From: a virus
Taxonomy: Duplodnaviria; Caudoviricetes
Strand: one strand, 5' to 3'
Length of the DNA: 56,674 bases
Virus record (IMG/VR): IMGVR_UViG_3300034072_002225
Coordinates: 1-56,674 of that record
The notes below the pieces were generated by a model, which worked only from the letters and a program-made list of their open reading frames with translations, had not been told where the DNA came from and ran no database searches. The position numbers and the translations under genes are program-made. Of this stretch, positions 1-48,827 are shown in pieces; position 1 is the first letter of the stretch, and the number at the start of each line of letters is the position of its first letter.

Positions 1-44
1 TCATAATCCGCGTGTCGGGGGTTCAAGTCCCTCCTCCGCTACCA
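1..44 (+). tRNA. 3' half of tRNA-Met (CAT), probably elongator; integration target
   Basis: Anticodon loop TCATAA (CAT at 2-4), T-arm GGGGG-TTCAAGT-CCCTC, acceptor 3' strand CTCCGCT, discriminator A, CCA at 42-44. 5' half lies outside the window. Confidence 0.9.
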
Positions 45-1653
45 GCGATGCAGTCCTCTTTGGCTGTGTCGCTGGCGGCTTCCCCGAAGCAAGCGCCAGC
101 ACGTTCGCCAGGCTCCCCGTAACTTCGATCCTCGCCATGTCCGCCTCGGTTGGTGCGTCCGACACGATCACCTGTCCGATCAACGAGCGGATCACCGGTA
201 GGAACTGTCTCGCCCGGTTGCCGGTCGCCAGTGCGGTGCCGAGCAGGGCAATGCGCCGACGATAGGATTCGACGATCTGCGGGTGCAGGACGATTGGGCG
301 CAGCGCCTGATGCTCGGCAAGCTCGGCCTCAGCCGCCGCCAGCTGCTCCTTCCGTGTGTCGAGCCCCTGCTTGAGCATCGCGACGTCGATCTGGCCGCTG
401 GCCATGGCGTCGACCAGTCGGCCGATTTCGCCCTTCAGCTGGGCGATCCGCTCGCGCACATTGTGGATGTCACCGGCCATCCGCTTTTCTTCGGCAGCCG
501 AGTGTTCATGGTATCGCTTCACCACCGCGGCGACGACGTCGGGCGCGAGCAGCTTGCGCTGCAGCCCGGCCAGTACGCGCTGTTCGAGGCGCTCGGTCGA
601 GACACGGCGGCCATTCGTGCAGCTGCTGCCCGCCTTGCGATCGCCGCAGCCCCAGCGATCCTTGCTGAGCACGGTATAGGCGCCGCCGCATTCCCCACAT
701 CGTACCAGGCCGGAAAAGACGTGCTTCGGCCGCCGCTGGCGATGCGCCGGGACGCCTTCGTTCTCCGCGTGTGCCTTCTGCACGGCATCCCAGCTCGCCT
801 GGTCGATGATGCGGAGCTGCTCGGCCGGCACCATTACCACCGCATCGGCATCGTTCGCGCGCGAGACACGGCGGCGCGTCTCCGGGTTCTTGCGCATCTG
901 CACGCGGTTATAGGCAATCTGGCCGGCATAGGCCGGGTTATGGAGGATCCCGTTGCGGCGGCCGCGCGTGCCGGTGAGCGTCGTCGGCCGCCACATTTCG
1001 CCGCGCGGCGCCGGCACGCGCTCCGCGTTCAAGCGGCGGACGATGGCGATCGGGCTATCGCCGGCGATCGTCTCGGCGAAAATTCGCCGGATGATCGCGG
1101 CCTCTTCCGGCACGATTTCGCGGTGGCCGCGCTCGACAACGCCGTCGACGATCTTCGGCACTGCCCGATAGCCGTAGCACATGCCGCCCGGCACCAGGCC
1201 GCGCTCGACCGTGCCGCGCTGGCCGCGCCGGATCTTGTTCGCGAGCTCCTTCACGAACAGGGCGTTCATGGTCCCCGCCATGCCGACGTGCAGCATGCCG
1301 ATCGGCCCTTCGGACAGGGTGTGCAGCGCGCAATCGGCGAAGGTCAGGCGCTTGTAGATCGCGTCGGTATCGCCCAGATCGCGGGCGACGCGATCCAGGG
1401 CCTCTGCCACGACGATCTGGAAATGCCCCGCCTCGACGTCGGCGAGCAGCTGGTTGAGGCCGGGGCGGGCGGTGGTGGTGCCGCTGATCGCGAGATCCTT
1501 GTAGACCTCGACGACGTCCCAGCCCTGACGCTCAGCGTATTCCCTGCAGGCGCGCGCCTGGTCCTCGGCCGAGCGCGGGTTCTGCAGGTCGGTGGAGAAG
1601 CGGGCGTAGATCGCGGCGCGCGGGCGCGGCGCGGCGTGGGCGGCTGGTTTCAT
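1..1653 (-). CDS. Large serine recombinase (phage integrase)
   Basis: AAIYARFST catalytic Ser motif, LDRVAR, recombinase domain, CGECG..C..C zinc ribbon, coiled coil. Start probably ATG 1653 (ORF open to 1713). Stop falls in the tRNA anticodon loop. Confidence 0.93.
   Translation of the reverse strand: MKPAAHAAPRPRAAIYARFSTDLQNPRSAEDQARACREYAERQGWDVVEVYKDLAISGTTTARPGLNQLLADVEAGHFQIVVAEALDRVARDLGDTDAIYKRLTFADCALHTLSEGPIGMLHVGMAGTMNALFVKELANKIRRGQRGTVERGLVPGGMCYGYRAVPKIVDGVVERGHREIVPEEAAIIRRIFAETIAGDSPIAIVRRLNAERVPAPRGEMWRPTTLTGTRGRRNGILHNPAYAGQIAYNRVQMRKNPETRRRVSRANDADAVVMVPAEQLRIIDQASWDAVQKAHAENEGVPAHRQRRPKHVFSGLVRCGECGGAYTVLSKDRWGCGDRKAGSSCTNGRRVSTERLEQRVLAGLQRKLLAPDVVAAVVKRYHEHSAAEEKRMAGDIHNVRERIAQLKGEIGRLVDAMASGQIDVAMLKQGLDTRKEQLAAAEAELAEHQALRPIVLHPQIVESYRRRIALLGTALATGNRARQFLPVIRSLIGQVIVSDAPTEADMARIEVTGSLANVLALASGKPPATQPKRTASLVAEEGLEPPTRGL
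31..44 (+). repeat. attL core CTCCTCCGCTACCA
   Basis: Exact 14-bp copy at 48814..48827; identical to the tRNA 3' end. Confidence 0.9.
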
Positions 1654-1756
1654 GCTCGGGTCTCTCGGGCGATTCGACGCGCGCAGCATCCTCGCTTGCC
1701 ATGTCTTCGGCAATGGCGAGCGCCAGATCTAAAATATCGAACGCCGGCGCCGTCAT
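1532..1756 (-). CDS. Small protein overlapping the integrase 5' end (candidate recombination directionality factor)
   Basis: ATG 1756 overlaps the upstream stop (ATGA); MTAPAFDILDLALAIAEDMASEDAA.. 74 aa; runs out of frame into int. Confidence 0.5.
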   Translation of the reverse strand: MTAPAFDILDLALAIAEDMASEDAARVESPERPEHETSRPRRAAPARRDLRPLLHRPAEPALGRGPGARLQGIR

Positions 1757-2196
1757 GCGATCACCGGCACGGTGGGGGTGAAGGGCAGGGGCGGCAGCGC
1801 ACGATCGCGGCGCGCGTAGAAGGCGCGGAAATAGATGATCCACTCCAGGATCCAGCGGACGCCGGCGCGGCGGGATTCGAGATAGGCGTTGCCGGGCTTG
1901 GCGCGGCAGGCCTGGTCGCGGCCGACGAGCGCACGATCGGCGGCCGCCTCGAGCTCGCGCCATTCCTCGGCGCCGGCGCCGGCGGCGAACAGCGCGGCGA
2001 TCGCGCGCCAGGCGCGCAGATCGGCGGTAGCCTCGCCCTGCTCGATCTCGCGACGTTCGATCATGGCGGGGTAGTGTTTCTCGCGAAGCGCGAGCTCCTG
2101 GGCGGCCACAGCGGCCAGCAGCGGGAGCGCGGCGCAGGAAAAGGGCGCGCCCGTCCGGTGCATCGGGATCGATGCATGGGGGGCGCTGGTGGTCAT
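1753..2196 (-). CDS. Hypothetical phage protein
   Basis: ATGA-coupled to neighbours; helical, plausible composition. Confidence 0.7.
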   Translation of the reverse strand: MTTSAPHASIPMHRTGAPFSCAALPLLAAVAAQELALREKHYPAMIERREIEQGEATADLRAWRAIAALFAAGAGAEEWRELEAAADRALVGRDQACRAKPGNAYLESRRAGVRWILEWIIYFRAFYARRDRALPPLPFTPTVPVIA

Positions 2197-2552
2197 GCGT
2201 GGGCCTTGCGCAGCGCTTGAAGCCGCAGCCACTCACCGAAGGTCTCACCACAGTCGGCATCGAGATACTGCTGATACCGCTGCTGCGACCGCGTCAGTTT
2301 CGGTGGCGGCGGGCTGTTCGCTGCCATCCAGGCGCGTCCCTCGTCCGTGACGAAGAACAGATCGTCCCCGCCATACATCGCGACGGCGCGGCGGACCTTC
2401 ATCAGCCCGCGCTCGACGAGGCTGTTGCAGGTTGCGTGATCCGCGCTTCCCTCGCCGGTGCAGAAATGGTTGCGGTACTGCTGACCACGCCCATGCTGGT
2501 CGACGCCGAGCGCGTGCTGCAGGATGTGCAGGTCGTTATCCATGCGGGTCAT
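2193..2552 (-). CDS. Hypothetical phage protein (HALG..YRNHF.. type, wHTH-like)
   Basis: 119 aa, coupled overlaps on both sides. Confidence 0.75.
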   Translation of the reverse strand: MTRMDNDLHILQHALGVDQHGRGQQYRNHFCTGEGSADHATCNSLVERGLMKVRRAVAMYGGDDLFFVTDEGRAWMAANSPPPPKLTRSQQRYQQYLDADCGETFGEWLRLQALRKAHA

Positions 2553-3001
2553 CCCTCGGCGAGCTCTAAGCGAGGAGGGTCGGCGCGATACACCAGCGCG
2601 ACCTGCGGCTGGTCGACGCCGATCGCGATAAGCTCGGTGTCGCCTACCTCGGTGCCGCCGACTTCGCCAAGGACCTGCCGCAGGCCAGTCTCGTCATGGG
2701 CGACGCTGTCGTAATTCCAGCCAAGCCCTTCGCCGAAGCGAACCGCGAGGATCGACGCATCGGCGGGAAGCGGGCGGTCGAACGTCCACTCACCGCCTTC
2801 GCGGCGGGTCGCGACGATATCGTCGCCCCAGGCGACGACCGAGGCGGTGAACGTCTCTCCGTCGCGGGCGGGCTCGGGACGGTTCCAGTCCTCGGCCGGC
2901 TTCGACAGCCACTCCGCCCAGCCCTCTAGCGTGGTGTCGCACGGGAGCACCTCGTCGTTCCAGGGATCGAGATAGTAGCTGGTTTCGGGAAGCGAGATCA
3001 T
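2549..3001 (-). CDS. Hypothetical acidic protein
   Basis: 150 aa, ATGA coupling. Confidence 0.75.
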   Translation of the reverse strand: MISLPETSYYLDPWNDEVLPCDTTLEGWAEWLSKPAEDWNRPEPARDGETFTASVVAWGDDIVATRREGGEWTFDRPLPADASILAVRFGEGLGWNYDSVAHDETGLRQVLGEVGGTEVGDTELIAIGVDQPQVALVYRADPPRLELAEG

Positions 3002-5202
3002 TCCGCCGCCTCCTCGAGATCGGCTTCGCCGTCCTCGTCTTCCAGGCCCTCGCCGTCGTCATATTCGTCGTCGAGATCGTCGAGGCGTTCGGTTCGTTTC
3101 TCGGCCGAGCTGAGCGGCGCGACGGTGTGGGTGTCCAGCCACTCGGGGCGCCAGGTCGAAATCTCGCCGCGATCGCCATCGCCGATGCCGAGCTTCTGCG
3201 CGTCGAGCTCGTCCTCGGGGGATTCCGCCCGGGCCGCGCGGATTACGCGGGCGCAGAAGGCGGCGCTGTCGCCCTTCTTCAGGGTCTTCGCGCGATCGCC
3301 GAGGCCCCATTCCTCGAGCAGCTGCAGGCGCTGCTTGTGGCTGATCAGTTCGAAGAAGGCCTGGTCGAAGATCGCGATGTCGTACCAAGGTGCGGCGCAG
3401 TCCTCGTCTTCCAGCGTGTTGGCCAGTTCGTCGATCATGCGGGGCGCGCGGCCGTCGCCGTAATAGCTGGTGGTGGCGAGCAGGCTGTGCCCGGCGGCGA
3501 TCGCGGCGGCCTGTTGCAGGGTCTTCTCGCCCGCGTTGCAGAATTCCACCCAACCGTCGATCGGATCGTCGGCGGTGACCCAGGGTTCTGCGGCGAGCCT
3601 GGTCATGGCTTCGCGCCATTCCGCGCCGACCGTCAGCGTCTCGAACAGCTTCCGCACCGACGATGGCGCCTTCATGCCGGTCGATTCCTGATCGGCGGGC
3701 GTTTCGATGCCCTGGGCGTGGCCGGAGAAGGTTGGGCGCTTGTCGTACGTTTCGCCGCTAGGGCGCAGGATGGAGCGGGCCTGCGAATAGACCAGGAAGT
3801 CGAGCGCGGCACCCCCGGCAGCGGTCAGCACCAGCTGAACCCGGAGCATCTCGCGGCGATACATCAGCATCGCCTGCATCGCGTCCTTGGTCAGGCCCCA
3901 GGCGGCGCGCTGGCGCTCCTCGGGCGACTTGGCGCCGCCGGCGGCGCGCGTGCTGGCTCCCTTTGGTGTGACGAGGCCAGCCTCGGTGCGGTTCGCGAAC
4001 CACAGGGAGAAGGTGACGCGGCCGTTGGCCTCGACCTTCGGCACGCCGACGATCTGGCCCTTCTTCGGAAGCGGGATCGGGCGCTGGTCGTTCAGCGCAT
4101 CCAGCTCTGCGCGAAGATCCTGATATTCCCGATCCAGCCCCGGGTCGTTGCGCTGGCCTGGCTGCTGAAGCTGGCGCAGCCGCAGCTCGATTTCCTTCGC
4201 CCGCTTTTCCTGTGCCTCCTCCGGGAGCCTGCCCGGGTTCTCGTGGAACTTCAGGTTCCAATCCAGAGAGGTATAGCCGTGCTGGGTGATGGTGGGTGCG
4301 GCATCCGCCCACTCGAATTGGAGGTTCTCCTTCAGGTTCTCAGGCGAGCCCGTGATTGCGACCGTCTTCCCGCGGATCAGCCGCGACGTGTAGGCCCGCT
4401 TAGCCTCGGCGATCTTCTCGTTCGCGAGGCGGCGGAGAATGTCCTCGTGCTCGACGATGCCGGTGTTCGGCTCCTGGGCGAACAGGTCGACGGTGAACAC
4501 GCCGCCGGCGGCGACATAGGCGTCCAGGCCGACCAGGTTGAGCAGCGCGCGGTGCTCGTCCAGGCCGACCTTCATCGCGTCCTTGATGTGCCGGGGAAAG
4601 TGCTGATTGGCCGGCAGCTGCGACAGGTGCTCGTAGACCTGCAGCTGCAGCGCCTGGTCCTCGGTGGCGGCATAGGCATAAGCCTGCTCGTCGTTCAGCG
4701 CGCCGGCGTCATAGGCGGCGAACACCGTGGGGTGCAGATAGGCCAGCCGCAGGATGCGGGCGACGCGCGCCGGATCGAGCGAGAAATGCTTGGCTAGGTC
4801 CGCATCGGTGATCGCGGGATCGCGCTCGCGGATCTGGCGAAAGGCCGCATAGATCTCCGGCGCCCGCATTGCCTCCCGCACATAGTTTTCGTGCAGGCTG
4901 ATCTCGGTGAGCTCGGCATCGGTGCCGTCGAGGATTGTCACCGGGATCGCGTCGAAGTCGAAGTCGGCGCCGTCCTTCTTCAGCTTCTGGATCGCGTGCC
5001 AGCGGCGGCTGCCGGCCAGCACGCCGAGTTTGCCCTTGGGCAGGCCCGCGCCCTTGTGGACCGCGATCGGCTGGATCAGTCCGCGCGCTGCGATCGATGC
5101 GGCGATCTGATCGATGATCGCCGCATCGGGCGTCTTCTCGCGCACGTTGAGGGGAGACTTGGCGAGCAGGGACAGCTTCGCCGTTGCGATGGTAGACTTC
5201 AT
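2998..5202 (-). CDS. Large ParB/RepB/Spo0J-family protein
   Basis: SPLNVR..IAASIAARGLIQPIAV..AGSRR..EISLHENYVRE ParB N-domain followed by HTH; acidic tail. Confidence 0.85.
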   Translation of the reverse strand: MKSTIATAKLSLLAKSPLNVREKTPDAAIIDQIAASIAARGLIQPIAVHKGAGLPKGKLGVLAGSRRWHAIQKLKKDGADFDFDAIPVTILDGTDAELTEISLHENYVREAMRAPEIYAAFRQIRERDPAITDADLAKHFSLDPARVARILRLAYLHPTVFAAYDAGALNDEQAYAYAATEDQALQLQVYEHLSQLPANQHFPRHIKDAMKVGLDEHRALLNLVGLDAYVAAGGVFTVDLFAQEPNTGIVEHEDILRRLANEKIAEAKRAYTSRLIRGKTVAITGSPENLKENLQFEWADAAPTITQHGYTSLDWNLKFHENPGRLPEEAQEKRAKEIELRLRQLQQPGQRNDPGLDREYQDLRAELDALNDQRPIPLPKKGQIVGVPKVEANGRVTFSLWFANRTEAGLVTPKGASTRAAGGAKSPEERQRAAWGLTKDAMQAMLMYRREMLRVQLVLTAAGGAALDFLVYSQARSILRPSGETYDKRPTFSGHAQGIETPADQESTGMKAPSSVRKLFETLTVGAEWREAMTRLAAEPWVTADDPIDGWVEFCNAGEKTLQQAAAIAAGHSLLATTSYYGDGRAPRMIDELANTLEDEDCAAPWYDIAIFDQAFFELISHKQRLQLLEEWGLGDRAKTLKKGDSAAFCARVIRAARAESPEDELDAQKLGIGDGDRGEISTWRPEWLDTHTVAPLSSAEKRTERLDDLDDEYDDGEGLEDEDGEADLEEAAE

Positions 5203-5250
5203 GTGCCGTCCTTCAGTGCTGTGCGGCCGATTCCCCGGCCGCTGGGGGGA

Positions 5251-5652
5251 TTATTCGGCGGCGATCGCGTCCTCGGCGCGGGCCTCGCGGCGGGCGAGCG
5301 TCAGCAGGCGGGCGCGGATCGAATTGGGCGGGCGGCCGGTGCGGCGCATGATGTCGCACACGCGGACACCCTGGCTGCGCAGTGCCACCAGCAAGGCGTC
5401 TTCTTCCGGCGTGAAGGGCCGGACGACATGTCCGCCCCGGCCATAGGGCTCGACCGGCTGGGTGCAGATGCCGCGCTTCTGCGGCGGCGCATCGGCGCCG
5501 AACGACATGCATTGCCAGTCGATCGCGCTGGGGCTGATCGGCGTGCCGGCATCGGTGAAGTGCCTGGCGATCTGGTTGATCGTCCAGCCGTCTTCGCGCA
5601 GCGTGCACATTTCGTCGATCTGCGCGTCGGACAGGGTGCGCTTGCCGCCCAT
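5251..5652 (-). CDS. Double HTH (Myb/GcrA-N-like) DNA-binding protein
   Basis: Two repeats: LSDAQIDEMCTLREDGWTINQIARHF and FTPEEDALLVALRSQG..IMRRTGRPPNSIRARL. Confidence 0.75.
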   Translation of the reverse strand: MGGKRTLSDAQIDEMCTLREDGWTINQIARHFTDAGTPISPSAIDWQCMSFGADAPPQKRGICTQPVEPYGRGGHVVRPFTPEEDALLVALRSQGVRVCDIMRRTGRPPNSIRARLLTLARREARAEDAIAAE

Positions 5653-5653
5653 G

Positions 5654-5839
5654 TCAGCCCTCCACCTTGGCGGATGCGGGCAGGAGATCCTCGCGGACGT
5701 AGCGGACGCCGTGGTGATCCTCCTTCCAGGATGCGGGCATCTCGGCGCTCGGCCACCAGATGGACGGGCCGTGGCTGCCCATGACGAGCGTGATGGATTC
5801 CGGCGCCTCGCGCGGCTCCAGCTTGGTGAATTCGGTCAT
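5654..5839 (-). CDS. Hypothetical protein (61 aa)
   Basis: MTEFTKLEPREAPESITL..; ATGA overlap with the upstream stop at 5836. Confidence 0.6.
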   Translation of the reverse strand: MTEFTKLEPREAPESITLVMGSHGPSIWWPSAEMPASWKEDHHGVRYVREDLLPASAKVEG

Positions 5840-6138
5840 CCTGCGGTGCTCCCAGGCTGTTGCCGGCTGGCGCGATGCACCTCGCGGCCGAGTGGCGTCG
5901 CTTCGATGAAATTGCGCAGCGGCGAATTGAGGAACGGGCCGTCGCGCAGATCCCGCGTGGTGATCAGGCCCTTGCGGAGCAGCGCGGCGAAGGTCCCGCG
6001 GCGCGCGCCGATGTTGCGCGACAGATCGGCCCAGGTGCGCGGGCCGTGCTGCACACCGGACAGCAACAGGCGCATCGGGGCAGACAGGCGTGCCGCGGCA
6101 CGCGCGCGATCCAGGCGAGTGGCGCGATCGCGTTTCAC
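5836..6138 (-). CDS. Hypothetical protein, winged-helix-like
   Basis: GTGA overlap at 6135-6138; TWADLSRNIG..TFAALLRKGLI..TPLGRE pattern. Confidence 0.6.
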   Translation of the reverse strand: MKRDRATRLDRARAAARLSAPMRLLLSGVQHGPRTWADLSRNIGARRGTFAALLRKGLITTRDLRDGPFLNSPLRNFIEATPLGREVHRASRQQPGSTAG

Positions 6139-6431
6139 TCGGCCGCCTCCGCCTCGCCGCGTTCGCCCATCTGGGCGGCGATGCGGGCATAGGCGCGGGC
6201 GGCGCGGGCGGCGGGGCCGTTGGCCTGCTCCGCCGGCTTGCGACCGAGCACCTTGAGGATGTGCGCCTCGGTCCGCTTGGCCAGATGCGACAGGTTCTGG
6301 CGGCGCAGCTTGCCCAGATGATTGCGCAACAGGGCAGGCGCCTCGCCCCAGCATTCGGCGCAGACGATCATCCAGTTCTCGCGCGTCCCGGTGCAGCCAC
6401 GGCGCCGGCAGGTGTAGCGGCGCGCCGTCAT
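6135..6431 (-). CDS. Small Cys-rich (C-x4-C..CxxCW) protein
   Basis: YTCRRRGC..VCAECW; ATGA coupling. Confidence 0.7.
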   Translation of the reverse strand: MTARRYTCRRRGCTGTRENWMIVCAECWGEAPALLRNHLGKLRRQNLSHLAKRTEAHILKVLGRKPAEQANGPAARAARAYARIAAQMGERGEAEAAE

Positions 6432-6532
6432 GCCGCCGGCGTCCAGGCGACGATGATGATCGCCATCGCGCAGACGATGCCGATCATGCAGAGCACGGCC
6501 AGCGCGAGCTCAATGCGGCTAGCCTTGCGCAT
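6428..6532 (-). CDS. Small single-TM protein (34 aa)
   Basis: MRKASRIELALAVLCMIGIVCAMAIIIVAWTPAA; TGATG overlap with upstream ORF. Confidence 0.6.
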   Translation of the reverse strand: MRKASRIELALAVLCMIGIVCAMAIIIVAWTPAA

Positions 6533-7455
6533 CAGCGTGCCTTTCCGATCAGGGTGCCGGTCCGCGCGGTCAGCAACCGGGCGAGGAAGCGCGGCGCGAG
6601 ACGAAGCAGCAGCGCAACGGCGCCGGCCTGCCACCAGGGCAGGCGGGCCGGGCCGGTATCACCGAAGCGATCGCGATCGGCGCGCAAATGGAAGCCGCGC
6701 CAGCGCTGCGGCTGGCGCAGGACGTTGGGGCCGGAGACCATGGACACGGTGGGGCGAAGTCGTCGCCGAAGTGCCGGGTCGATGGACTCGATTCGACGGC
6801 GTGCTAGCGTGCCGCGATTATCCGAGGGGGAATCATCATGGACGCGGTAGAGATCTTTCCGCTTGGCAATGTCGGCTTCCGGCGCGTCTCGGCCGATGGC
6901 GTGAAGCATGTCGGCATCGAGTTGACCGATCAGGCCACTGGTGGCTGCACGATCATCTGGTTTGAGGAGCGACTGTTCATCGGCTTCGCCGAGCACCTGT
7001 CGATGATCGGCGACGAGATCCTTCGAGAGTATCCGGCGCCCCGAATCTAGCGCGACCTTCTTCGTGTAAAATGGGGCGCGGCGGGTGTCCGGCGCAGGGA
7101 TCGGATTTTCCGATATGGTGAAGCTGCGGGGCTGGGTGGGAAACCAGCGCCGCTGGCATCCGCCGCCGTCCTGTACCTTGCGAGGGATGAAGCCTCGCGC
7201 GGCCAGCGCGCGGCCGAGCGCAAGATTGCTGTCGGTCCAGCCGAGAGCCGCGCGCGCTTCCTCAAGCGAGACCCCCGAATCGCGCGCCGCGAGATCGGCC
7301 AGCGCCTGCTCCGCCGATGCTTCGGCTGCCTTTGCCTGGCAGTTGCACAGCCAAGGAAAGGTTTCGCCGAACCGCGGGCAAGCAGCCGTGTGCCCTGGGC
7401 GATCGGCCAGCGGAATACCGAGCCGGTCAAAGTGCTGCTGATTTGTGAGTGCCAT
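6532..7455 (-). CDS. First gene of the early-left operon, hypothetical (hosts a nested antisense ORF)
   Basis: GGAGG RBS before ATG 7455, directly downstream of PL; 3' end coupled to next gene; central part reads like an antisense shadow. Confidence 0.55.
   Translation of the reverse strand: MALTNQQHFDRLGIPLADRPGHTAACPRFGETFPWLCNCQAKAAEASAEQALADLAARDSGVSLEEARAALGWTDSNLALGRALAARGFIPRKVQDGGGCQRRWFPTQPRSFTISENPIPAPDTRRAPFYTKKVALDSGRRILSKDLVADHRQVLGEADEQSLLKPDDRAATSGLIGQLDADMLHAIGRDAPEADIAKRKDLYRVHDDSPSDNRGTLARRRIESIDPALRRRLRPTVSMVSGPNVLRQPQRWRGFHLRADRDRFGDTGPARLPWWQAGAVALLLRLAPRFLARLLTARTGTLIGKAR
6838..7050 (+). CDS. Nested antisense 70-aa protein
   Basis: GAGGGGG RBS, GC3-rich codons, globular composition; candidate promoter TGGACT-N16-TAGCGT at 6783..6810. 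Confidence 0.65.
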   Translation: MDAVEIFPLGNVGFRRVSADGVKHVGIELTDQATGGCTIIWFEERLFIGFAEHLSMIGDEILREYPAPRI

Positions 7456-7483
7456 GATGCGCCTCCGGTTGAACCGGAGACGT

Positions 7484-7536
7484 AAAAATCACATCACAAT
7501 GTGTTTTGCAACCAGATTATCACATTTGCATGTGAA
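7484..7536 (-). promoter_or_regulatory. PL promoter with two operators (7488..7505, 7519..7536)
   Basis: ATCACAT-N4-ATGTG(T/A)(T/A) palindromes; TTGCAA -35 at 7506..7511 with an operator filling the spacer. Confidence 0.75.
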
Positions 7537-7537
7537 C

Positions 7538-40788: not shown

Positions 40789-40812
40789 CGGCGCGCAACA
40801 GGAGGAAAATCG

Positions 40813-41085: not shown

Positions 41086-41680
41086 GATCAAGAATGCGAA
41101 GCGGAAGGCCGGCGTTTCCGCCCTTGTCGCCAGCATCATCGCCGCGACGATCGCCCTCGAGGGCGGCTATGTGAACCACAGCAGCGATCCCGGCGGCGAA
41201 ACCAACATGGGGATCACCAAGCGAACCGCGGTGCAGCACGGCTATACCGGGCCGATGCGCACGCTGCCGCGCGAGGTGGCGAACAGCATCTATTACCAGT
41301 CCTATCTGGTGGCGCCCGGATTCGCTCCCCTCGCCGATATCGATGCAGCGGTGACGAGCGAGCTGTTCGACACGGCGGTGAACATGGGGCCGTACAAGCC
41401 CTCCGCCTGGTTCCAGGCATCGATCAACGCCACCTGTGGCGCCGCGCTGCCGATCGACGGGAAGGTCGGCGCCGCGACGATCGCCGCCTATAGGGCCTGC
41501 CAGGCCCGCCTCGGCCCGGTGACGCTATGCCGGACGATGCTGGATGCGCTCGATGCCCGGCAGCGCGCCGAGTATCTGCGGCTCGTAGGGGTGCAAGCGA
41601 AGTACAAGGCCTTTCTGAAGGGATGGCTGGCGCACCGGATCGGCAATGTCGATCGCGCGAAGTGCGCGGTGCGCCAATGA
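41078..41680 (+). CDS. Endolysin, glycoside hydrolase family 108
   Basis: EGGYVNHSSDPGGETNMGIT, FDTAVNMG, DG.VG..T, FLKGW..RI. Confidence 0.93.
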   Translation: MPEIKNAKRKAGVSALVASIIAATIALEGGYVNHSSDPGGETNMGITKRTAVQHGYTGPMRTLPREVANSIYYQSYLVAPGFAPLADIDAAVTSELFDTAVNMGPYKPSAWFQASINATCGAALPIDGKVGAATIAAYRACQARLGPVTLCRTMLDALDARQRAEYLRLVGVQAKYKAFLKGWLAHRIGNVDRAKCAVRQ

Positions 41681-42018
41681 GCCGCTTCGAGATCTTGTCG
41701 CCAATTCTGCGGCGGGCAGGCGATCGGCTGGCATTCTTCTGTCCTGGGTGCGAGACGCCGCATGTCCTCAACGTGTATGCAGATCGGCATCCGCGGTGGG
41801 GGTACAATGGCAACCCGGAGGCTCCGACCTTCACGCCCAGCGTGCTGAACCGCACAGGGCGTGCCGTGGACCCCAACTTTGTATCCGAGCCAGGTGATCC
41901 GCCAGAGGTCTGTCACGTCTTCGTGACGGATGGCCACATCCAGTTCCTCGGCGACTGCACGCATGCTTTGGCCGGGCAGACGGTGCCGATGACCGCTTGG
42001 CCGGAGGACTGGTCATGA
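41677..42018 (+). CDS. DUF6527-like Cys/His protein
   Basis: FFCPGC..H..W.YNGN..PTFTPSVL..CH.FVTDG.IQFL.DCTH.LAGQTV. Confidence 0.75.
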   Translation: MSRFEILSPILRRAGDRLAFFCPGCETPHVLNVYADRHPRWGYNGNPEAPTFTPSVLNRTGRAVDPNFVSEPGDPPEVCHVFVTDGHIQFLGDCTHALAGQTVPMTAWPEDWS

Positions 42019-42380
42019 AGGTGACCCCCATCGTTCGCGTCGTCCTGATCGCGGCCGCCGTTCTGCTGATCTTCGGTTCGTTGGTCCTGCGATCCTGCCA
42101 GAACGCCGGCACCGCGCGGACCGAGGCGAAGCTCGCCACGGGCCAGGCCGGCGCCGCGATCGAGAGCGGGGGCGATGCCGCCCAGACCATCGGCAACCAG
42201 GCGGCCGCAGAGGCGGCCACCGATGCCCTCACACGGGAGAATGAACATGCGATCCGTACCGCGCCCGGGGCGAATGCTCCCGTCGATCCTGCTGCTCGCG
42301 ATGCAGGGTTGCGCGCCCTTTGTCGCCGCGCCGCCTATCGCAGCGATCCCAAGTGCATGCGTTTCGCTGCTGCCCCGTAA
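42015..42380 (+). CDS. Inner-membrane spanin (Rz-like)
   Basis: N-terminal TM, Ala-rich coiled coil, C-terminal LC..AY..DP.C. Confidence 0.75.
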   Translation: MKVTPIVRVVLIAAAVLLIFGSLVLRSCQNAGTARTEAKLATGQAGAAIESGGDAAQTIGNQAAAEAATDALTRENEHAIRTAPGANAPVDPAARDAGLRALCRRAAYRSDPKCMRFAAAP

Positions 42381-42585
42381 CTGGCAGCAGGGCGTGCCCG
42401 GCGCGCCGTTGCCCAGCGGCGATGTGCTGGCCGACTGGCAGGTATTCGGAGACGCGCAGACCGGCCAGCTGGACAAGGCGAACGATCGCCTGGTCGCCGC
42501 GATCGGCATCGTCGAGCGATGCGAAGCGCGCGATGCTGCCGCCGCAAAGGCCGCCACCCGCCGGCGCGTACTCGGCATCTTCTAA
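42241..42585 (+). CDS. Outer-membrane lipoprotein spanin (Rz1-like)
   Basis: Overlaps Rz in another frame; lipobox LLLAMQG-C. Start 42241 or 42247. Confidence 0.75.
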   Translation: MNMRSVPRPGRMLPSILLLAMQGCAPFVAAPPIAAIPSACVSLLPRNWQQGVPGAPLPSGDVLADWQVFGDAQTGQLDKANDRLVAAIGIVERCEARDAAAAKAATRRRVLGIF

Positions 42586-42609
42586 CCCCAAACTTCAAGG
42601 AACAGCATC

Positions 42610-42927
42610 ATGGCAACCGTTTACGTGACGGTCGGCCGGGTCGCCTCGCGCGCACCCGTGACCGGCGATACCCTGCAGGCGCTGGGCGCCGTGCCGCAGA
42701 AGACCGTGCAGGCGAGCAGCACCGGCAGCTCGGCCGTGGTCGTCGGCATCACCGCCGCGCGCAACCAGGTGTGGAGCATCTACGCGGCCGATGGGCCGGT
42801 ACGCGTCGCGTTCGGCACGGCGCCCACTGCCGCCGGCACTGCCTATTGGATCGTGCCGCAGGGCAGCACCCGCGAATTCGTCTGCGAGGACGAAGGCCCG
42901 CAGGCGATCGCGCTGATGGACGCCTGA
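42610..42927 (+). CDS. Small beta-rich virion protein (candidate head-spike base)
   Basis: AAGGA RBS; 105 aa; VRVAFG.AP.A..G..REF. Confidence 0.65.
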   Translation: MATVYVTVGRVASRAPVTGDTLQALGAVPQKTVQASSTGSSAVVVGITAARNQVWSIYAADGPVRVAFGTAPTAAGTAYWIVPQGSTREFVCEDEGPQAIALMDA

Positions 42928-42973
42928 TCGCCGGCAAAGGCGACGGATCAACACGAAATCGAAGGAAGACGAT

Positions 42974-45058
42974 ATGGGGCTGGGGTTCGGCTATTCGGGC
43001 GGGGGCGGTGGCGCTTCCGTCATGGTGCGCAACGTATCGGTGGCGGCGGGCGCCACCGGCCGGCGCGTCAACCTGGTGCGGCTGCTGGGCAGCGCATCCA
43101 CCTTCTCGCTGCTGAGCGGTACCAACGCCAACATCACGCTGGACAACGGCACCGGGCTGGCGCTGACCAGCGGGCTGGCAGCCGGCGAGACACAGACGGC
43201 GCTGATGCGCGAGGAGGTGGGCAGCGGCGCCACGAAGCGCGCGGTGGAATATGCGGTGAACCTCACCGGCGCGCCGGTCGCGCCCTCGGTCCCGGCGGTG
43301 ACGCTGACCGCCGGCAACGGCCAGATCAGCGTGGCCTGGACGGATGGCAGCAACGGCGGCGCCCCGATCACCTCCCATCGCATCTACCTCGATGGCGTGC
43401 TGGTGGCCTCGCCGAGCAGTGCATCGCCCTATGTGATCACCGGCCTGGTCAACGGCCGCAGCTATACGGTGCAGGTGTCCGCGGTGAACAGCGTCGACGA
43501 GGGGGCGCTTTCGTCGCCGCAGTCGGAGATGCCGACTGCGGCGGGGGGCTTCGCTCCCACAACCTTTGCAATCGCGCCCACCGCCCAGTGGCATCCGAAC
43601 ACCGCCACGATCACGACCGACAGTAACGGCCGCATGACGTCGCTGTCTGACGCTAAGGGCTTTGCAGCACTGTCTGAGACCTCGGCAGGGATTGGCGCTT
43701 TCGTCAGGACAGATGGCCTCGGGCGCAAGTTTTTGTGCTTCACGGGGTCGGAAGGCATCAAGTCCGCCGCCGCGCTGTCGCTCAACCTGCGGAACTGCAC
43801 GGTGATGATTATCGCGCGGAACCATCTCAATGGTCCGACGCGCCCTAGGTGGATGTCCGCTGGCTATAACTCGGGCGGCTCAGCGGCTGCCAACATGCAG
43901 GTGGCATACTTCGACCAGGCAGCCGCGGGCGTGGCGACGGTGATCGGATCGGGAGTCGCCGCAGGCAAGCAGGCGAATATGATCGCGGACTGCCATGTCC
44001 GCGCGTACCTGTGGCGCTGGGGTGCGAATGCTTCGGCCGGCACGGCCAACGCAGGCCTGCGGCTCGCGGTCAACGGCTACAACGACAACGTGGCGCTCAG
44101 CGGCACGCCGCCGACCCCAGTGCCCGGCGTCGAGATCGGTCGCTTTGCGTATTCACCCGGCACTATCGGCACTTGGTCGCGGCTCGACGCGTACGAGATC
44201 ATTGTCTGGACACAGGCGCTGACCGACGCGCAGTGCGATGCGGCGATCGCTGCCGCCATGGCGAACTATCAGCTCAACAACTCGATCCACCAGCTCGTGC
44301 TGGAGGGCGACTCCCGCCGATACGGGTTCAGCTACGCGAATGGCCCCAACGGCTTCGACAGCAGCCAGAACCCAGCGATGCTCATGACGGCCCCAGGCGA
44401 TCCACTGGCCATCCCCGACACCTGGATGGTCACGAACTACGCGGTCTCGTACTCTTCGATTCCTGCGGGAACCGGCGCTGGCGGCAACAACAACCAGACC
44501 TATCGGCGTGATACCAACAACTCGTGGTCAACCAAGCTGAAGACTGGCGGCCGCAACGTGGTCCTCTGGCTGAATGGCGGCAACAATTTCAAGCTGAGTC
44601 CCCCGATGTCTGGCGCGGAGACCTACGCGGCACAGGTGGCGTGGCTGAATACCGCCACCACCGGCGTTCTTCAGCGTGGTTGGGAGAGCATCATGATGAC
44701 GGAGATGCAGTTGCCGTCAGACCTGTATACCCAGACGGACGACCTCCGCGCACTGGAGATGAATGCGGCTCAGCTTGCAGCCGATACTCTCAGCGGGCCT
44801 GGGCAGATCTACGAAGGCAAGGTCAAGGTGGTGCCAATTCACCTGATCAAGCAGGCGGTGACGGACAACGGGCCGAACCCGAGCCCGAACGGCACCATCT
44901 GCGGCTCGCGTGGTGACGAGTCGAATACGCTTTTCTACCTGATCAATCCGGCGACCGGAAACTCTGACGGCACCCATCCGACCAAGGTGCTGAACAAGTT
45001 GCTCTGGTCCGGCGCCGACACCCCTCAGTACGGGATCAGAGCGGCTCTTGGGCTGTAG
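42974..45058 (+). CDS. Fibre-like protein: FN3 + LamG-like + SGNH hydrolase
   Basis: AGNGQISVAW..NGGAPIT..ITGLVNGRSYTVQVSAVN (FN3); EIIVW..ALT (LamG-like); LEGDSR, G.NN, DGTHP (SGNH blocks). Confidence 0.85.
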   Translation: MGLGFGYSGGGGGASVMVRNVSVAAGATGRRVNLVRLLGSASTFSLLSGTNANITLDNGTGLALTSGLAAGETQTALMREEVGSGATKRAVEYAVNLTGAPVAPSVPAVTLTAGNGQISVAWTDGSNGGAPITSHRIYLDGVLVASPSSASPYVITGLVNGRSYTVQVSAVNSVDEGALSSPQSEMPTAAGGFAPTTFAIAPTAQWHPNTATITTDSNGRMTSLSDAKGFAALSETSAGIGAFVRTDGLGRKFLCFTGSEGIKSAAALSLNLRNCTVMIIARNHLNGPTRPRWMSAGYNSGGSAAANMQVAYFDQAAAGVATVIGSGVAAGKQANMIADCHVRAYLWRWGANASAGTANAGLRLAVNGYNDNVALSGTPPTPVPGVEIGRFAYSPGTIGTWSRLDAYEIIVWTQALTDAQCDAAIAAAMANYQLNNSIHQLVLEGDSRRYGFSYANGPNGFDSSQNPAMLMTAPGDPLAIPDTWMVTNYAVSYSSIPAGTGAGGNNNQTYRRDTNNSWSTKLKTGGRNVVLWLNGGNNFKLSPPMSGAETYAAQVAWLNTATTGVLQRGWESIMMTEMQLPSDLYTQTDDLRALEMNAAQLAADTLSGPGQIYEGKVKVVPIHLIKQAVTDNGPNPSPNGTICGSRGDESNTLFYLINPATGNSDGTHPTKVLNKLLWSGADTPQYGIRAALGL

Positions 45059-45188
45059 ACACTGGGGGCGAGGCGTCTGCCGGTGATGTGTCTTGCTCGA
45101 CGTTAGCGATTAGCACCACTGCGAACAGGATCGCCAGCAGCAGCGCAAGTGATAGTCGATTGAACGTCTGGTGTGATGTTTCGTGCAT
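45036..45188 (-). CDS. Small single-TM protein (50 aa, below ORF-track cutoff)
   Basis: AAAGGGGG RBS; MHETSHQTFNRLSLALLLAILFAVVLIANVEQDTSPADASPPVSTAQEPL. Confidence 0.5.
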   Translation of the reverse strand: MHETSHQTFNRLSLALLLAILFAVVLIANVEQDTSPADASPPVSTAQEPL

Positions 45189-45227
45189 TGCGTCGCCCCC
45201 TTTGACTTGGCCTTACCACGCGTTGGC

Positions 45228-45476
45228 ATGGCCGCAACACATCGCAATCTAAACTCGGTGTCGGAGATTGGGACAGTGCCTCCTTTGCTGCAATTCCTAT
45301 CGCTGGTGGTGCGCGTCGAGCCGCTGAAAGGCTGGCCCGGACTGACGCTGGTGGTGCTGCTCGACGGCACCAGCATCGTCTACAAGGCGGGCTACATGGC
45401 GGTGCTCGACCCGATCGAGCATGCGGGCGCGCTGGGCGTGGCCCGGATGGGCGAGCTTCTCCGGGCAGGTACATGA
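45228..45476 (+). CDS. Hypothetical protein
   Basis: ATGA-coupled to next gene; start uncertain. Confidence 0.5.
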   Translation: MAATHRNLNSVSEIGTVPPLLQFLSLVVRVEPLKGWPGLTLVVLLDGTSIVYKAGYMAVLDPIEHAGALGVARMGELLRAGT

Positions 45477-45832
45477 CCGAGATTTGCCCGTGCTGTGGGG
45501 CAGAGCGGTTCCCAAGCTATAGCTATGGCGCTTGGCGATCGGAGGGCGGGATAGGCGGGCAGCCGCGCATATTCTTCAATGGCGAGGAGGTGCCGGCGAT
45601 CCCTGGCGCTCCTGGCCGGCTGCTGGCGGCCATGATCCGCAGCAAGGGTAAATTGCGAACGGCAGCTGGAGCGATCATGTCGGCGAAGAGCCAGGATGCG
45701 AACGGGGTCAAAAACCTTTGGTCCAACATGACCCGCCTCCGTCAGCATGTCGCTTGCGCGACCGGCGGCGCATGGGAGATCCCGAGGCCGGAGGTGAACG
45801 GCCATGTGTACGTGCTGCGAGAACGGAAATAG
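45473..45832 (+). CDS. CPCCG knuckle + OmpR-type winged-helix protein
   Basis: ICPCCG; FNGEEV..RLLAAMIRSKG..VKNLWSNMTRLRQ..YVL. Confidence 0.65.
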   Translation: MTEICPCCGAERFPSYSYGAWRSEGGIGGQPRIFFNGEEVPAIPGAPGRLLAAMIRSKGKLRTAAGAIMSAKSQDANGVKNLWSNMTRLRQHVACATGGAWEIPRPEVNGHVYVLRERK

Positions 45833-45851
45833 CACCTCGACTCCCTCGTGT

Positions 45852-45866
45852 GTTCCCGTCATGTTC
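45852..45866 (+). promoter_or_regulatory. Alphaproteobacterial LexA (SOS) box
   Basis: GTTC-CCGTCAT-GTTC (GTTC-N7-GTTC) 5 nt before ATG 45872. Confidence 0.75.
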
Positions 45867-45871
45867 CGCGC

Positions 45872-46117
45872 ATGCGCAGTGCTGGCCGCCCCTCGATGCC
45901 CCTCGACCAATCGGTCGGCTTCGCACCCCGCGTTCGGATCGTTTGCCAGTGCCCGGGCGGGGTGGGTATCTGCGGGCATTCGGTGATCATGCGCACCGAG
46001 GACCTGTATGCTGCGGCGCCGGGGGCAGTCACCGAGAAGCAGTTTCGCGATCGGCTGCGGTGCAGGAAGTGTGGGAATCGCAGTTGGGCGCGGATTGAGG
46101 CGGCTGGGCGCGGTTAG
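45872..46117 (+). CDS. Small zinc-ribbon protein, SOS-boxed
   Basis: CQC..CGH..RLRCRKCG; 81 aa. Confidence 0.75.
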   Translation: MRSAGRPSMPLDQSVGFAPRVRIVCQCPGGVGICGHSVIMRTEDLYAAAPGAVTEKQFRDRLRCRKCGNRSWARIEAAGRG

Positions 46118-46118
46118 G

Positions 46119-46466
46119 TTATAGCTGCTTCAGCAGCGAGGCCTTCGCGGTGGCGAACTCCTCCTCGGTAAGTGCGCCGCGATCGCGCAGGTTCGCCAGC
46201 TTTCCCAGGGCCTCGGGAATGTCGTTGGACTTTGTCTGTGGCATTTCGTCGATTGCAGGTTCCACCTCGGCGTCTGTTGTGGCGATCGGTGTTGGCGGGG
46301 CTATGGGCGCCGGCACGATGGCCGCGAACAGCAGTCCGAACGGGCCGAAAAAAAGCCCCATGAAGAAGCATGTGACACCGTCGATGCCGCGGGAGCTGCC
46401 TATGACCGCCGAGAACATGCCGAAGACAACTGCGAATATCACAGCCAGCGCGAGAAATGTTTCCAT
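46119..46466 (-). CDS. Membrane protein with SHOCT domain
   Basis: Two TMs with GLFFGPFG; C-terminal EALGKLANLRDRGALTEEEFATAKASLL. Confidence 0.85.
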   Translation of the reverse strand: METFLALAVIFAVVFGMFSAVIGSSRGIDGVTCFFMGLFFGPFGLLFAAIVPAPIAPPTPIATTDAEVEPAIDEMPQTKSNDIPEALGKLANLRDRGALTEEEFATAKASLLKQL

Positions 46467-46493
46467 CTTTATATTCCCCCTTTTGGGGAGAAT

Positions 46494-46691
46494 TTACGGC
46501 TGTCCCAATTCCACGTCCAGCGCAAGGTTGAGCAGTCGGCGGATGGCCTCGGGACGCGAAGGCTGTTCTTCCTGCGCTGATATCCAGGCATCGATCCGGT
46601 CCAGCATTACAGGTTCAATGCGAAGATGCACCGAAAGCGCGCCTGTTTTCGGCCGCCCGCGTTTTCGCGTACCAGATATTGCGTCGGTCAC
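46494..46691 (-). CDS. Ribbon-helix-helix (CopG/Arc-like) regulator
   Basis: KRGRPKTG..VHLRI..LDRIDAW..SRPEAIRRLL. Confidence 0.75.
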   Translation of the reverse strand: MTDAISGTRKRGRPKTGALSVHLRIEPVMLDRIDAWISAQEEQPSRPEAIRRLLNLALDVELGQP

Positions 46692-46772
46692 TATTTTCGC
46701 GTACCTGAAATAGCAGGCCGATGCAAGGTTGCCGCCTCGCATCGGCCCTAACCCACTGCACGGAGGATACCC

Positions 46773-47120
46773 ATGCAACAGGCTGATCATGGCCATAGCG
46801 CCAACCCCGTCGGGAAATCGACCGATAATGCCGAGATCTTTATCGGCGAACCGCTGCGCGCGCTGTACGAGGCCGAGCACCTCGCGGATTATGTGGAGAC
46901 GTTGCTCAGCGTCGGCGAACGGCTGCTGCACGAGGCGATCGAGCAGATCGTGTTTGCGCAGCCGGCCGGCGCCAAGCCGGATGTCCGCCCGCTGGGAGAG
47001 GTGGCCAATCTGATGGGCACCGCGTCGCTGCTGAACGAACTCGGTCGGAAGCAGATGTCGGCGGCGGATGTCGACCTGGAACGCCTGCGCTTTACCGTGA
47101 ACTGGCGGAGGGCGGCATGA
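46773..47120 (+). CDS. Hypothetical protein
   Basis: GGAGG RBS; ATGA-coupled to rha. Confidence 0.7.
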   Translation: MQQADHGHSANPVGKSTDNAEIFIGEPLRALYEAEHLADYVETLLSVGERLLHEAIEQIVFAQPAGAKPDVRPLGEVANLMGTASLLNELGRKQMSAADVDLERLRFTVNWRRAA

Positions 47121-47902
47121 GCGCGGTCGTTCGGATGGACCAGGGGCGCGCGCTGGCGGACAGCCGCGATGTCGCGGATGCGTTCGGGAAGGTGCACAAG
47201 AGTGTGCTGCGGTCGGTAGACGTCCTGCTGTCAGAGCGAGAGGATCTTGGGCACAATTTTGTGCCCAAGATCTACCCGGTGCACACGGCCAAGGGCGCTA
47301 CCCGTTCTGCCCGCGCCTTCGACATGGACCGCAAGGGTTTCATGCTCCTGGTGATGGGCTTCACCGGCGCCAAGGCGCTGTCGGCCAAGGTCGAGTGGAT
47401 CGACGCCTTTGACCGGATGGAAGCCGCGCTGCTCGCGATCGACGCCGACGACGAGGTGGACGAGATCGACGAGGCGCCCGCAGCGCCGTCGATCGGCTAC
47501 TCGGGCGACGAACTGGACGATCTGCTGAAGAAGCTGCGCGTCGTTCGGGAGACGCGGCGGCACTATGGCGCCGAGCAGGCGCGCAAGGTGTGGCGCGAGC
47601 TCGGCATCCTGCCCCATGTGTTCGATCCTTCGGGAACGGACCTGCGGTTGCCCGATCTGCCCGGGGCGGTACTGCCATCGGTGGTGCAGTGGCTGGAAGC
47701 GCGGACGGTGCCGGCGCCGGGACAGCGGGTCGCGTCCTCACGGCTTTACGACGATTATCGCCGCTGGGTGCTCGGTCGCGAGCATGCCGGCGATCCGGCG
47801 ACGATCACCGCCTTCGGCACCGCGCTCAGCAACCTGGGCGTGCACAAGGTGAAGAGCGGCCACGGCCGTAGCCTGCGAATCGGGCGGCAGCTGTTGCACT
47901 GA
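47117..47902 (+). CDS. rha: Rha-family regulator with C-terminal D5-like winged helix
   Basis: DSRDVADAFGK.HK.VLR..MDRKGFMLLVMGFTGAKA..K..WIDAFDRME. Confidence 0.88.
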   Translation: MSAVVRMDQGRALADSRDVADAFGKVHKSVLRSVDVLLSEREDLGHNFVPKIYPVHTAKGATRSARAFDMDRKGFMLLVMGFTGAKALSAKVEWIDAFDRMEAALLAIDADDEVDEIDEAPAAPSIGYSGDELDDLLKKLRVVRETRRHYGAEQARKVWRELGILPHVFDPSGTDLRLPDLPGAVLPSVVQWLEARTVPAPGQRVASSRLYDDYRRWVLGREHAGDPATITAFGTALSNLGVHKVKSGHGRSLRIGRQLLH

Positions 47903-47938
47903 TCTGACTGCCCTTTCGGCGCCACCGGGCCGAACACC

Positions 47939-47964
47939 GCCGCCGGGCAGGCAGGCCCGGCGGC
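47939..47964. terminator. Hairpin between convergent rha and hicB
   Basis: GCCGCCGGGC-AGGCAG-GCCCGGCGGC. Confidence 0.55.
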
Positions 47965-47973
47965 AAGAACGTC

Positions 47974-48450
47974 TCAGGCGCGCTTCCGCGTCGCCAGCTT
48001 CTTCCTGATCACCAGGCGCGTTTTCTGGGGCTTGGGCGCGGACGTGATCGAGGTGCCGGTGCTGTCCAATTTCTTGCCCAGCTTTTCCCGTGCGGCCTCC
48101 GCCAGGAACCGGGAGCGGTTGCTCGCAACGCGGTCGATCTGCGCGAGCAGCTGATCCTCCAGCGTGATCTGGACGCGCACCGCGCGGCCGGGCCGCTCGC
48201 CAGCTACCAGAAGCCTGGCCACCTCGATGCTGTCGCCTTCCGGGTGGATGGCATCGATCGCCGAGGGATCGGGAATCAGGTCGCCGAATTCAGCCATGAC
48301 GGAAAGGTGGCCCTCCAGCGCCTCTTGCGCGCCCTCGGCCGCTTCCTGGGCGGTGCTGCCGGCGGAAACGCAGCCGGGCAGATCCGGGAAGTACACGCCG
48401 AATCCTTCCGGCCCTTTCTCGATGATCGCAGGATAGTAGACGGTTGCCAT
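47974..48450 (-). CDS. hicB: HicB antitoxin
   Basis: YPAII..FGVYFPDLPGCVSAG.T..EA..A.EAL; RHH tail RVQITL..ID..NRSRFLAEAA. Confidence 0.93.
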   Translation of the reverse strand: MATVYYPAIIEKGPEGFGVYFPDLPGCVSAGSTAQEAAEGAQEALEGHLSVMAEFGDLIPDPSAIDAIHPEGDSIEVARLLVAGERPGRAVRVQITLEDQLLAQIDRVASNRSRFLAEAAREKLGKKLDSTGTSITSAPKPQKTRLVIRKKLATRKRA

Positions 48451-48485
48451 TGTCGTTCCCCTCCATGGGATGACAGGGTGGCCGC

Positions 48486-48674
48486 TCAGGGGAGCGGCAC
48501 ACCGGTTTGCTTCGAAATGCTCTTCAACGTGCCGATCGGCAGGTCGCTCTTGGGGTGGGGGACCGTCGCGGTGCCGGGCTTCGTCGGGTGGCGGAAGTGC
48601 TTGTGGCTTCCGGTCTGGCGGACCTCGTACCACCCATCCGCTTCAATCTTCCTGATGACTTCCCGGCTCTTCAT
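48486..48674 (-). CDS. hicA: HicA toxin (mRNA interferase)
   Basis: MKSREVIRKIEADGW..GSHKHFRHPTKPG..TVPHPKSDLPIGTLKSI.KQ.G. Confidence 0.95.
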   Translation of the reverse strand: MKSREVIRKIEADGWYEVRQTGSHKHFRHPTKPGTATVPHPKSDLPIGTLKSISKQTGVPLP

Positions 48675-48689
48675 CACGTCCCCCTATTG

Positions 48690-48706
48690 TGTGTAGCTTA
48701 TACACA
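48690..48706. promoter_or_regulatory. Putative HicB operator
   Basis: TGTGTA-GCTTA-TACACA palindrome upstream of hicA; extra TACACA half-sites at 48734 and 48745. Confidence 0.55.
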
Positions 48707-48813
48707 TGTGGAAGGGGGCGGGCAAGCAGAATATACACATGCGATACACATCGCCGCGTGTGATCGGATGATCAGGCTAGAAAGGAGCGAAGCGGACTAC
48801 GAAGCGCGTATCG

Positions 48814-48827
48814 CTCCTCCGCTACCA
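48814..48827 (+). repeat. attR core CTCCTCCGCTACCA (displaced tRNA 3' end)
   Basis: Exact match to 31..44. Confidence 0.9.

Follow-up and report, generated by a model that had tools for sequence, protein, structure and literature searches.

Attachment sites that lie inside genes

In phage Mx8 the phage attachment site (attP) lies inside the integrase gene (int), and the passages of a review that treat it (PMC6070905) report that integration yields a recombinant gene with a new 3' end, whose altered product is an active enzyme with changed properties. Here we analyse a comparable arrangement in IMG/VR virus record IMGVR_UViG_3300034072_002225 (Duplodnaviria; Caudoviricetes), whose whole length of 56,674 nucleotides (nt) we call the window, and which contains a prophage whose large serine integrase gene runs into a transfer RNA (tRNA) gene. 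As with Mx8 IntP, the core of attP lies within the int reading frame and the C-terminus of the protein is changed on integration. Mx8 IntP is a tyrosine recombinase, however, and the window integrase is a serine recombinase, of another superfamily and mechanism; set against Mx8, the window also has a whole attP, of simple dyad form, inside int, and takes its new tail from the antisense strand of the tRNA gene. Mx8 is the closest precedent, and the window integrase works like the Mx8 case from outside that family.

Mycobacteriophages of the BPs type carry attP in the repressor gene, where integration removes a C-terminal degradation tag from the product, according to the relevant passages of PMC3694055. 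BPs and the window have in common an attP inside a gene and viral and prophage forms that differ, but in BPs it is the repressor that is split and the integrase is a tyrosine recombinase, whereas in the window int itself is split and a degradation tag is hypothetical. There is no repressor gene at either junction in the window, the nearest far-end genes being those for HicA/HicB and Rha (Pfam). An earlier reading of the letters alone (the sequence-only reading) had named Mx8 and BPs as precedents, and the passages cited describe both as it did.

The well-known large serine integrases of phiC31, Bxb1 and A118 share with the window integrase the same three-domain enzyme with a coiled-coil insert and a dyad attachment (att) site of about 50 base pairs (bp). 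In those three systems we take attP to lie beside int, not inside it, and the bacterial site (attB) to lie mostly in protein genes. Each uses one protein form for both directions, together with a directionality factor. SSV-type integrases are tyrosine recombinases, and integration splits their gene in two with no short tail swap. The pertinent passages of the Islander paper (2014) note that the integrases of Mx8 and SSV extend across attP, so that the SSV-type enzymes of archaeal viruses are in this respect like the window integrase, and they also state that serine integrases are not known to use tRNA genes.

The Paracoccus phage vB_PamS_Pami6, an active temperate siphovirus whose recombinase is of the serine type and whose predicted site is tRNA-Met(CAT) (PMC6536676), shares enzyme type and tRNA target with the window; the passages of that paper devoted to it mention neither an overlap of int with attP nor a change of tail. 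For other Paracoccus prophages with serine recombinases the same passages report the integration sites as not identified, and int ends that read antisense through a tRNA may explain such cases. A literature search, mainly of titles and abstracts, found no published account of a serine integrase whose tail is changed on integration.

The two ends of the integrase and the site within it

The int gene of the prophage form occupies positions 1..1713 on the minus strand (an open reading frame (ORF) listed at 570 residues), and its last codons contain one copy of an exact 14-bp direct repeat, 31..44 = 48814..48827, whose flanking bases differ on both sides. In the prophage the gene reads antisense through this copy (..LVAEE) and then through the T-arm of the tRNA as nine codons, GLEPPTRGL, so that the protein ends ..SLVAEEGLEPPTRGL at a stop codon (3..1) in the anticodon loop. 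When the two junctions are joined by script, the frame runs on from ..LVAEE through 48813..48775, which translates as RYALRSPLRSFLA, to a stop at 48774..48772; these displaced 13 codons and their TGA (48772..48813, minus strand; RYALRSPLRSFLA) would be the end of int in the excised phage. Ten of the 13 residues of this displaced tail recur in the end of P0001, RYALRSPLKTFRA, the closest homologue in the database (71% identity). At the level of sequence, then, integration replaces 13 C-terminal residues of int by nine, and the gene has two state-specific ends. Because of this gene structure, integration would be the work of the phage isoform and excision that of the prophage isoform. The sequence-only reading had placed the att core in the last int codons, followed the prophage end antisense through the T-arm to a stop at 1..3, and joined by hand an alternative tail with its TGA at 48772..48774; the exact repeat and the ORF 1..1713 bear out the first two, and the scripted join agrees with the third to the base. 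Its proposal that the two tails are state-specific holds for the ends themselves, and the phage-form tail recurs in homologues, while the part in stability or directionality that it gave to them is still conjecture.

The 14-bp repeat consists of the last 14 bases of tRNA-Met(CAT), at its 3' end. The two copies, 31..44 where int meets the tRNA (the attL side) and 48814..48827 at the far junction (the attR side), are the only ones: no third copy occurs in the window on either strand with up to two mismatches allowed, and base composition predicts about 0.00027 copies per strand by chance. Window positions 1..44 (plus strand) are the last 44 bases of the tRNA gene, from the anticodon loop to CCA, and, compared by eye, do not differ from the 3' part of the intact tRNA-Met(cat) that ARAGORN calls in other genomes (L250 and L276). 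The window is a whole provirus record that opens exactly at the int stop codon; since its start cuts into the tRNA gene, ARAGORN calls no tRNA in the window, and whether the tRNA is whole cannot be read from a record that begins inside it.

Both forms of int are present among homologues. Of the C-termini of the 120 best database homologues (41–71% identity, mostly from Sphingomonadales by source names), 77 end in a tRNA-coded peptide, 31 have another tail after a ..VA[EK][ED] core, and 12 have no recognisable core. The other tails are 13 residues long in 25 of the 31, of which one is a mis-parse (24 proteins). Eight other genomes contain an int-side junction and a far core copy 7.6–44 kilobases (kb) apart, and when these were joined by script in the same way, exactly 13 codons followed ..VAE[ED] in eight of the nine rebuilt attP sites (the window plus the eight genomes); the ninth (G257), whose int side was taken unverified, runs longer than 13 codons. 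Both junctions occur, for example, in isolates of Sphingomonas, Novosphingobium and Croceicoccus. The attP-derived tails of close homologues are thus not random in length or sequence, the outcome that the sequence-only reading had named as fatal to its proposal. A 40,675-bp phage genome has direct terminal repeats (IMG/VR class) and is therefore not integrated, and it carries a 13-residue tail after a 588-codon open frame. Further 13-codon tails came from scanning viral contigs for the core with an Arg codon directly after it, which gave 86 matching stretches; of the 80 loci examined many match by chance, the frames to either side being unrelated, and from the scan we used the 13-codon tails and three longer ones preceded by a long open frame. 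A 13-mer search of 401 family genomes gave 489 matches, from the first 150 of which we picked by eye 20 places in nine genomes (same contig and strand): eight were tRNA contexts, three were 13-residue tails, one was a long tail, and eight were other junctions. All five of the IMG/VR provirus records examined for a far junction contain the int-side core only, so attP could not be rebuilt from them.

The arrangement is spread widely through the family. In a set of 229 complete int ORFs of relatives (35–68% identity), drawn from viral, isolate and metagenome loci, the antisense T-loop motif lies under the int end in 173, against 55 of 5000 random control windows. The int stop falls inside an opposite-strand tRNA called by ARAGORN in 96 of the 229, and in 86 of these 96 the tRNA is tRNA-Met(cat), the rest being Gly, Ser, Phe, Leu and Glu tRNAs; 53 of the 229 loci end too near the stop to contain a whole tRNA. 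A family that sits mostly in tRNA-Met(CAT) bears on the statement in the Islander paper (2014) about serine integrases.

A single sharp dyad axis is common to eight of the rebuilt attP sites; it falls between bases 2 and 3 of a 13-base identity, with a score of 0.603 against 0.375 for the next best and a median of 0.255 over the 76 centre positions scanned, and their arms match each other to about 26 bases. By this half-site symmetry the int-side arm (P') in the window is 34..59, the codons before and across ..VAEE, and the tail-side arm (P) is 48791..48816, the second Glu codon plus tail codons 1–8. Axis and arms together therefore place a complete attP of about 52 bp inside int, in its last 22 or so codons, while tail residues 9–13 and the stop codon fall outside it. 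The predicted central (crossover) dinucleotide is 33..34, between the two Glu codons of ..VAEE, and it is there, at window 33–34, that we infer strand exchange to occur; the ten identity bases to the right of the crossover would rebuild the acceptor end of the tRNA. A parallel scan of attB was dominated by the T-arm's own symmetry. As rebuilt from sequence, attP has the simple dyad form expected of serine integrases.

This geometry also bears on whether the repeat belongs to another recombinase altogether, for example the tyrosine integrase encoded outside the prophage at 48921..50192 (minus strand; PF00589), with the serine integrase ORF merely running into it. The tyrosine integrase gene does sit 94 bases past the far core copy, and short repeats at tRNA ends are typical of tyrosine integrases according to passages of the Islander paper. 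It lies outside the repeat-bounded element, however, and the same junction recurs in family members without that tyrosine integrase; homologues of the serine integrase carry on into a tail that matches 48775..48813, and the rebuilt site is a dyad of about 52 bp, the form that serine integrases use. We regard this explanation as highly improbable.

The domains of the protein are likewise those of a large serine integrase: Pfam finds Resolvase at residues 33–172 (PF00239, E 3.6e-26), then Recombinase at 202–317 (PF07508) and Zn_ribbon_recom at 333–384 (PF13408). The YxRxSxxxQ motif is YARFSTDLQ at 36–44, in which R38, S40 and Q44 are conserved in at least 90% of 42 aligned homologues and the serine is presumably the nucleophile, and the zinc-ribbon cysteines C339, C342, C356 and C365 are invariant among the aligned homologues. 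By these sequence criteria the protein is a large serine recombinase, with a predicted activity on attP x attB. The listed start is a TTG (window 1653..1713); homologues are mostly 540–560 residues long and the alignment opens near residue 30, and the true start is probably an internal Met downstream of the TTG.

The prophage body between the core copies (45..48813, 48.8 kb, annotated by PHROGs, Pfam and ORF layout) looks like a complete tailed-phage genome. PHROGs matches include primase/helicase, large terminase, portal, head protease, major head protein, tape measure and tail fibre, and Pfam matches include a ParB-domain protein, Rha, HicB and HicA. The last two form a toxin-antitoxin pair (HicB, 158 residues from its likely start, and HicA, 63 residues) at 47974..48677, at the right end of the prophage, and inverted repeats occupy 48678..48770, between hicA and the displaced int tail. 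Four assembled runs (X1, X2, X3 and X19) were examined as contigs, X3 and X19 covering one side only. In X1, the probable source, a single contig spans 47000..50500 without differences and so crosses the attR junction; no contig in X1 showed an excised or empty-site junction, contigs being prone to lose rare forms. A relative in X2, from an unrelated study, matches the right end of the phage plus the core and diverges eight bases past it, a divergence point that fits a phage ending at the core.

The phage-form tail and its possible roles

Conservation along the phage-form tail is highest in its distal part, [RK]-x-hydrophobic-x-hydrophobic-end. Among 25 tails, R or K fills position 9 in 21, F, I or V fills position 11 in 24, and V, A or T fills position 13 in 23; counted from the end, the residue is hydrophobic at -1 in 24/25 and at -3 in 24/25, and R or K stands at -5 or -4 in 22/25. 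Class conservation in the distal motif columns is 0.88, 1.00 and 0.84, and in the upstream linker columns 0.04–0.60, with insertions and deletions. The position of the stop is constant while its codon varies (TGA 11, TAG 4 and TAA 3 among 18 distinct 13-codon tails). In the four closest tail pairs there are 13 synonymous differences versus one non-synonymous (binomial P ~1e-6), and in codons 9–13 alone eight versus one (P 6.5e-4). The distal conservation, which lies outside attP, the constant place of the stop and this synonymous excess all point to selection on the phage-form tail of this clade as a peptide. Integration in the clade around the window thus removes a conserved, selected basic/hydrophobic end, whose role as a degradation tag is putative; the conservation of the tail among homologues, a question raised by the sequence-only reading, is seen in the close clade as the kept distal motif.

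An AlphaFold2 model of P0001, made from a 25-row alignment of phage-form proteins (mean predicted local distance difference test (pLDDT) 78.6), has the expected domains and a long coiled coil, with paired helices at 375–423 and 428–453; the coiled-coil insert is thus seen in the model of this homologue and not in the window protein. Linker residues 533–553 of the model have pLDDT below 50, and the last block averages 52. The model is compatible with a tethered linear motif, and the variable linker is probably disordered.

The following sequence of events would account for these observations. A temperate tailed phage would integrate at the 3' end of tRNA-Met(CAT) by means of its own large serine integrase, whose attP (about 52 bp) would occupy the last 22 or so int codons, with exchange between the Glu codons of ..VAEE. 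The free phage would make an integrase with a 13-residue tail; in the prophage those 13 codons would be stranded at the far junction, and int would read nine antisense T-arm codons to a stop in the anticodon loop. The last five tail residues would serve as a short motif for recognition at the C-terminus, carried by integrase only when it is made before integration; the likeliest role of this motif would be that of a tag for a protease or unfoldase that limits the life or activity of the phage isoform and that integration strips off. Taken whole, with an architecture, a family spread and a tail selection that are observed, and with a tail function and an exact crossover that we supply, the account of architecture, selected tail and recognition motif removed by integration is our best explanation, and we put its chances at slightly better than even. 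Its most specific element, that the distal motif is a degron which shortens the life of the phage isoform or prompts its remodelling, is a tentative suggestion by analogy, which we think less likely than not although it is the likeliest single role; the C-terminal ClpX signal of MuA given in Table 1 of PMC8138137, RRKKAI, is basic and then hydrophobic, and BPs shows that phages put integration to use in removing such tags (PMC3694055).

Several points weigh against this account. The likeness between the MuA signal and the tail of the window clade, a basic-then-hydrophobic end in both, was judged by eye only. The isoforms, and any difference between them, are predicted from sequence. The four close tail pairs were chosen after the sequences had been seen, and the ratio of non-synonymous to synonymous differences (pN/pS) pooled over all 153 tail pairs is 0.75, a value that probably reflects saturation of most pairs. 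Tail codons 1–8 double as an attP arm, and their conservation is therefore partly a constraint on DNA. Low pLDDT is no proof of disorder, and the alignment behind the model has just 25 rows. Tails at three viral loci with a near-full-length open frame upstream (L339, L334 and L337) are 17, 20 and 26 residues long and other junctions give 14–16-residue tails, so that length is not constant across the family. In the wider family (35–46% identity) the last residue is hydrophobic in 52% of 56 tails, compared with 43% of 389 other ORF ends; from this weak enrichment and the like it follows that the motif is limited to the clade around the window and does not extend to all tRNA-reading relatives.

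Much of this would also suit a neutral by-product, in which attP happens to lie at the 3' end of int, the C-terminus tolerates anything, and the likeness among tails reflects the attP arm and common descent. In its favour, tail codons 1–8 coincide with an attP arm, tails of 14–26 residues exist, the hydrophobic end is hardly enriched in the wider family, confidence in the modelled linker and tail is low, and the tRNA-coded tail is wholly dictated by the tRNA. It does not sit well with the fact that the most conserved tail positions are those outside the attP arm, with the eight synonymous versus one non-synonymous differences in codons 9–13, with a stop position kept although the stop codon changes, or with an adjacent upstream linker that varies freely in length and sequence. 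We think it unlikely that the tail is neutral.

Alternatively, the tail might act in recombination itself, docking on the coiled-coil or zinc-ribbon domain, on DNA by attP or on a directionality factor, so that the two isoforms differ in direction. Gene structure dictates that the phage isoform must integrate and the prophage isoform must excise, the tail is basic, and the changed 3' end of Mx8 int modified integrase specificity according to the passages of the review mentioned above (PMC6070905); the single-chain model, on the other hand, shows no confident contact of the tail. We give this role about the same low chance as neutrality.

Relatives, neighbouring elements and significance

Relatives in a metagenome scan reached at most 43% identity among the matches listed and were of no use for the close clade, and no isolated phage is close, the best being the Microcystis phages Mae-JY29 and Mae-JY30 (37%) and Rhizobium phage RR1-A (34%). 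Distant relatives (37–45% identity; for example L091, L100, L124 and L134) end ..VAG[AV]GFEP[AT]TFRL, and the tRNAs under their stops are mostly tRNA-Met(cat) by ARAGORN, with a few Gly, Ser, Phe, Leu and Glu tRNAs; two of these loci come from Paracoccus.

Some chromosomal int genes also have a non-tRNA tail, and for at least one of them, in G421, the cause is simple: the intact tRNA-Met is 56 kb distant, and the integrase frame runs on into the far end of the next element of a tandem array. Two homologues with phage-form tails, P0004 and P0030, lie on very long contigs (158 kb and 420 kb, respectively), and a tandem array as in G421 would explain their tails. In four isolate genomes, G007 (L258/L263), G010 (L250/L255), G008 (L265/L261) and G014 (L276/L281), an intact tRNA-Met lies 35–41 kb upstream, and the integrase reads through a displaced tRNA 3' half of about 48 nt, from the anticodon loop; another element, one with its crossover in the anticodon loop, therefore sits between tRNA and prophage. 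Elements on the same tRNA-Met core in G088, G193 and G134 (L296, L297, L308 and L315) have a different flank, similar among themselves, which in the int frame gives tails like GNIESI and EHIANI before a stop or further sequence; this shared flank implies a second element family that competes for this tRNA end. A 7.6-kb element in G264 (L311/L312, contig C34, 77032..84681) has the same core and a far-end 13-residue tail, RFDLGSTLRKIRV, and may represent either a remnant or a small satellite sharing the integrase system.

In the window itself, the 3' end of the tyrosine integrase gene 48921..50192 is the end that lies 94 bases from the far core, and the gene faces the tRNA remnant; the region 48828..56674 probably belongs to a second integrative element, inserted in tandem at that tRNA. 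The other end of that element is not in the window, where, beyond isolated 10-11-mers, there is no match of at least 10 bases to the tRNA part.

Large serine integrases are workhorse tools for DNA insertion, and the choice of direction is a central question for them. It is possible, if doubtful in our estimate, that the window belongs to a large clade of tRNA-Met serine integrases with a built-in isoform switch, in which a motif on the integrating form, serving ClpX-type removal or remodelling or else the tuning of direction, is deleted by integration. If so, the prophage would make only a differently tailed enzyme for excision, and control of directionality or irreversibility would lie inside the att site, in a class of enzymes thought to rely on separate directionality factors only. 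In the window family attP lies in the integrase's own gene, so the integrating and the excising enzymes differ by construction, and since selection maintains the tail that is lost on integration, the two forms can be compared for half-life and for direction.

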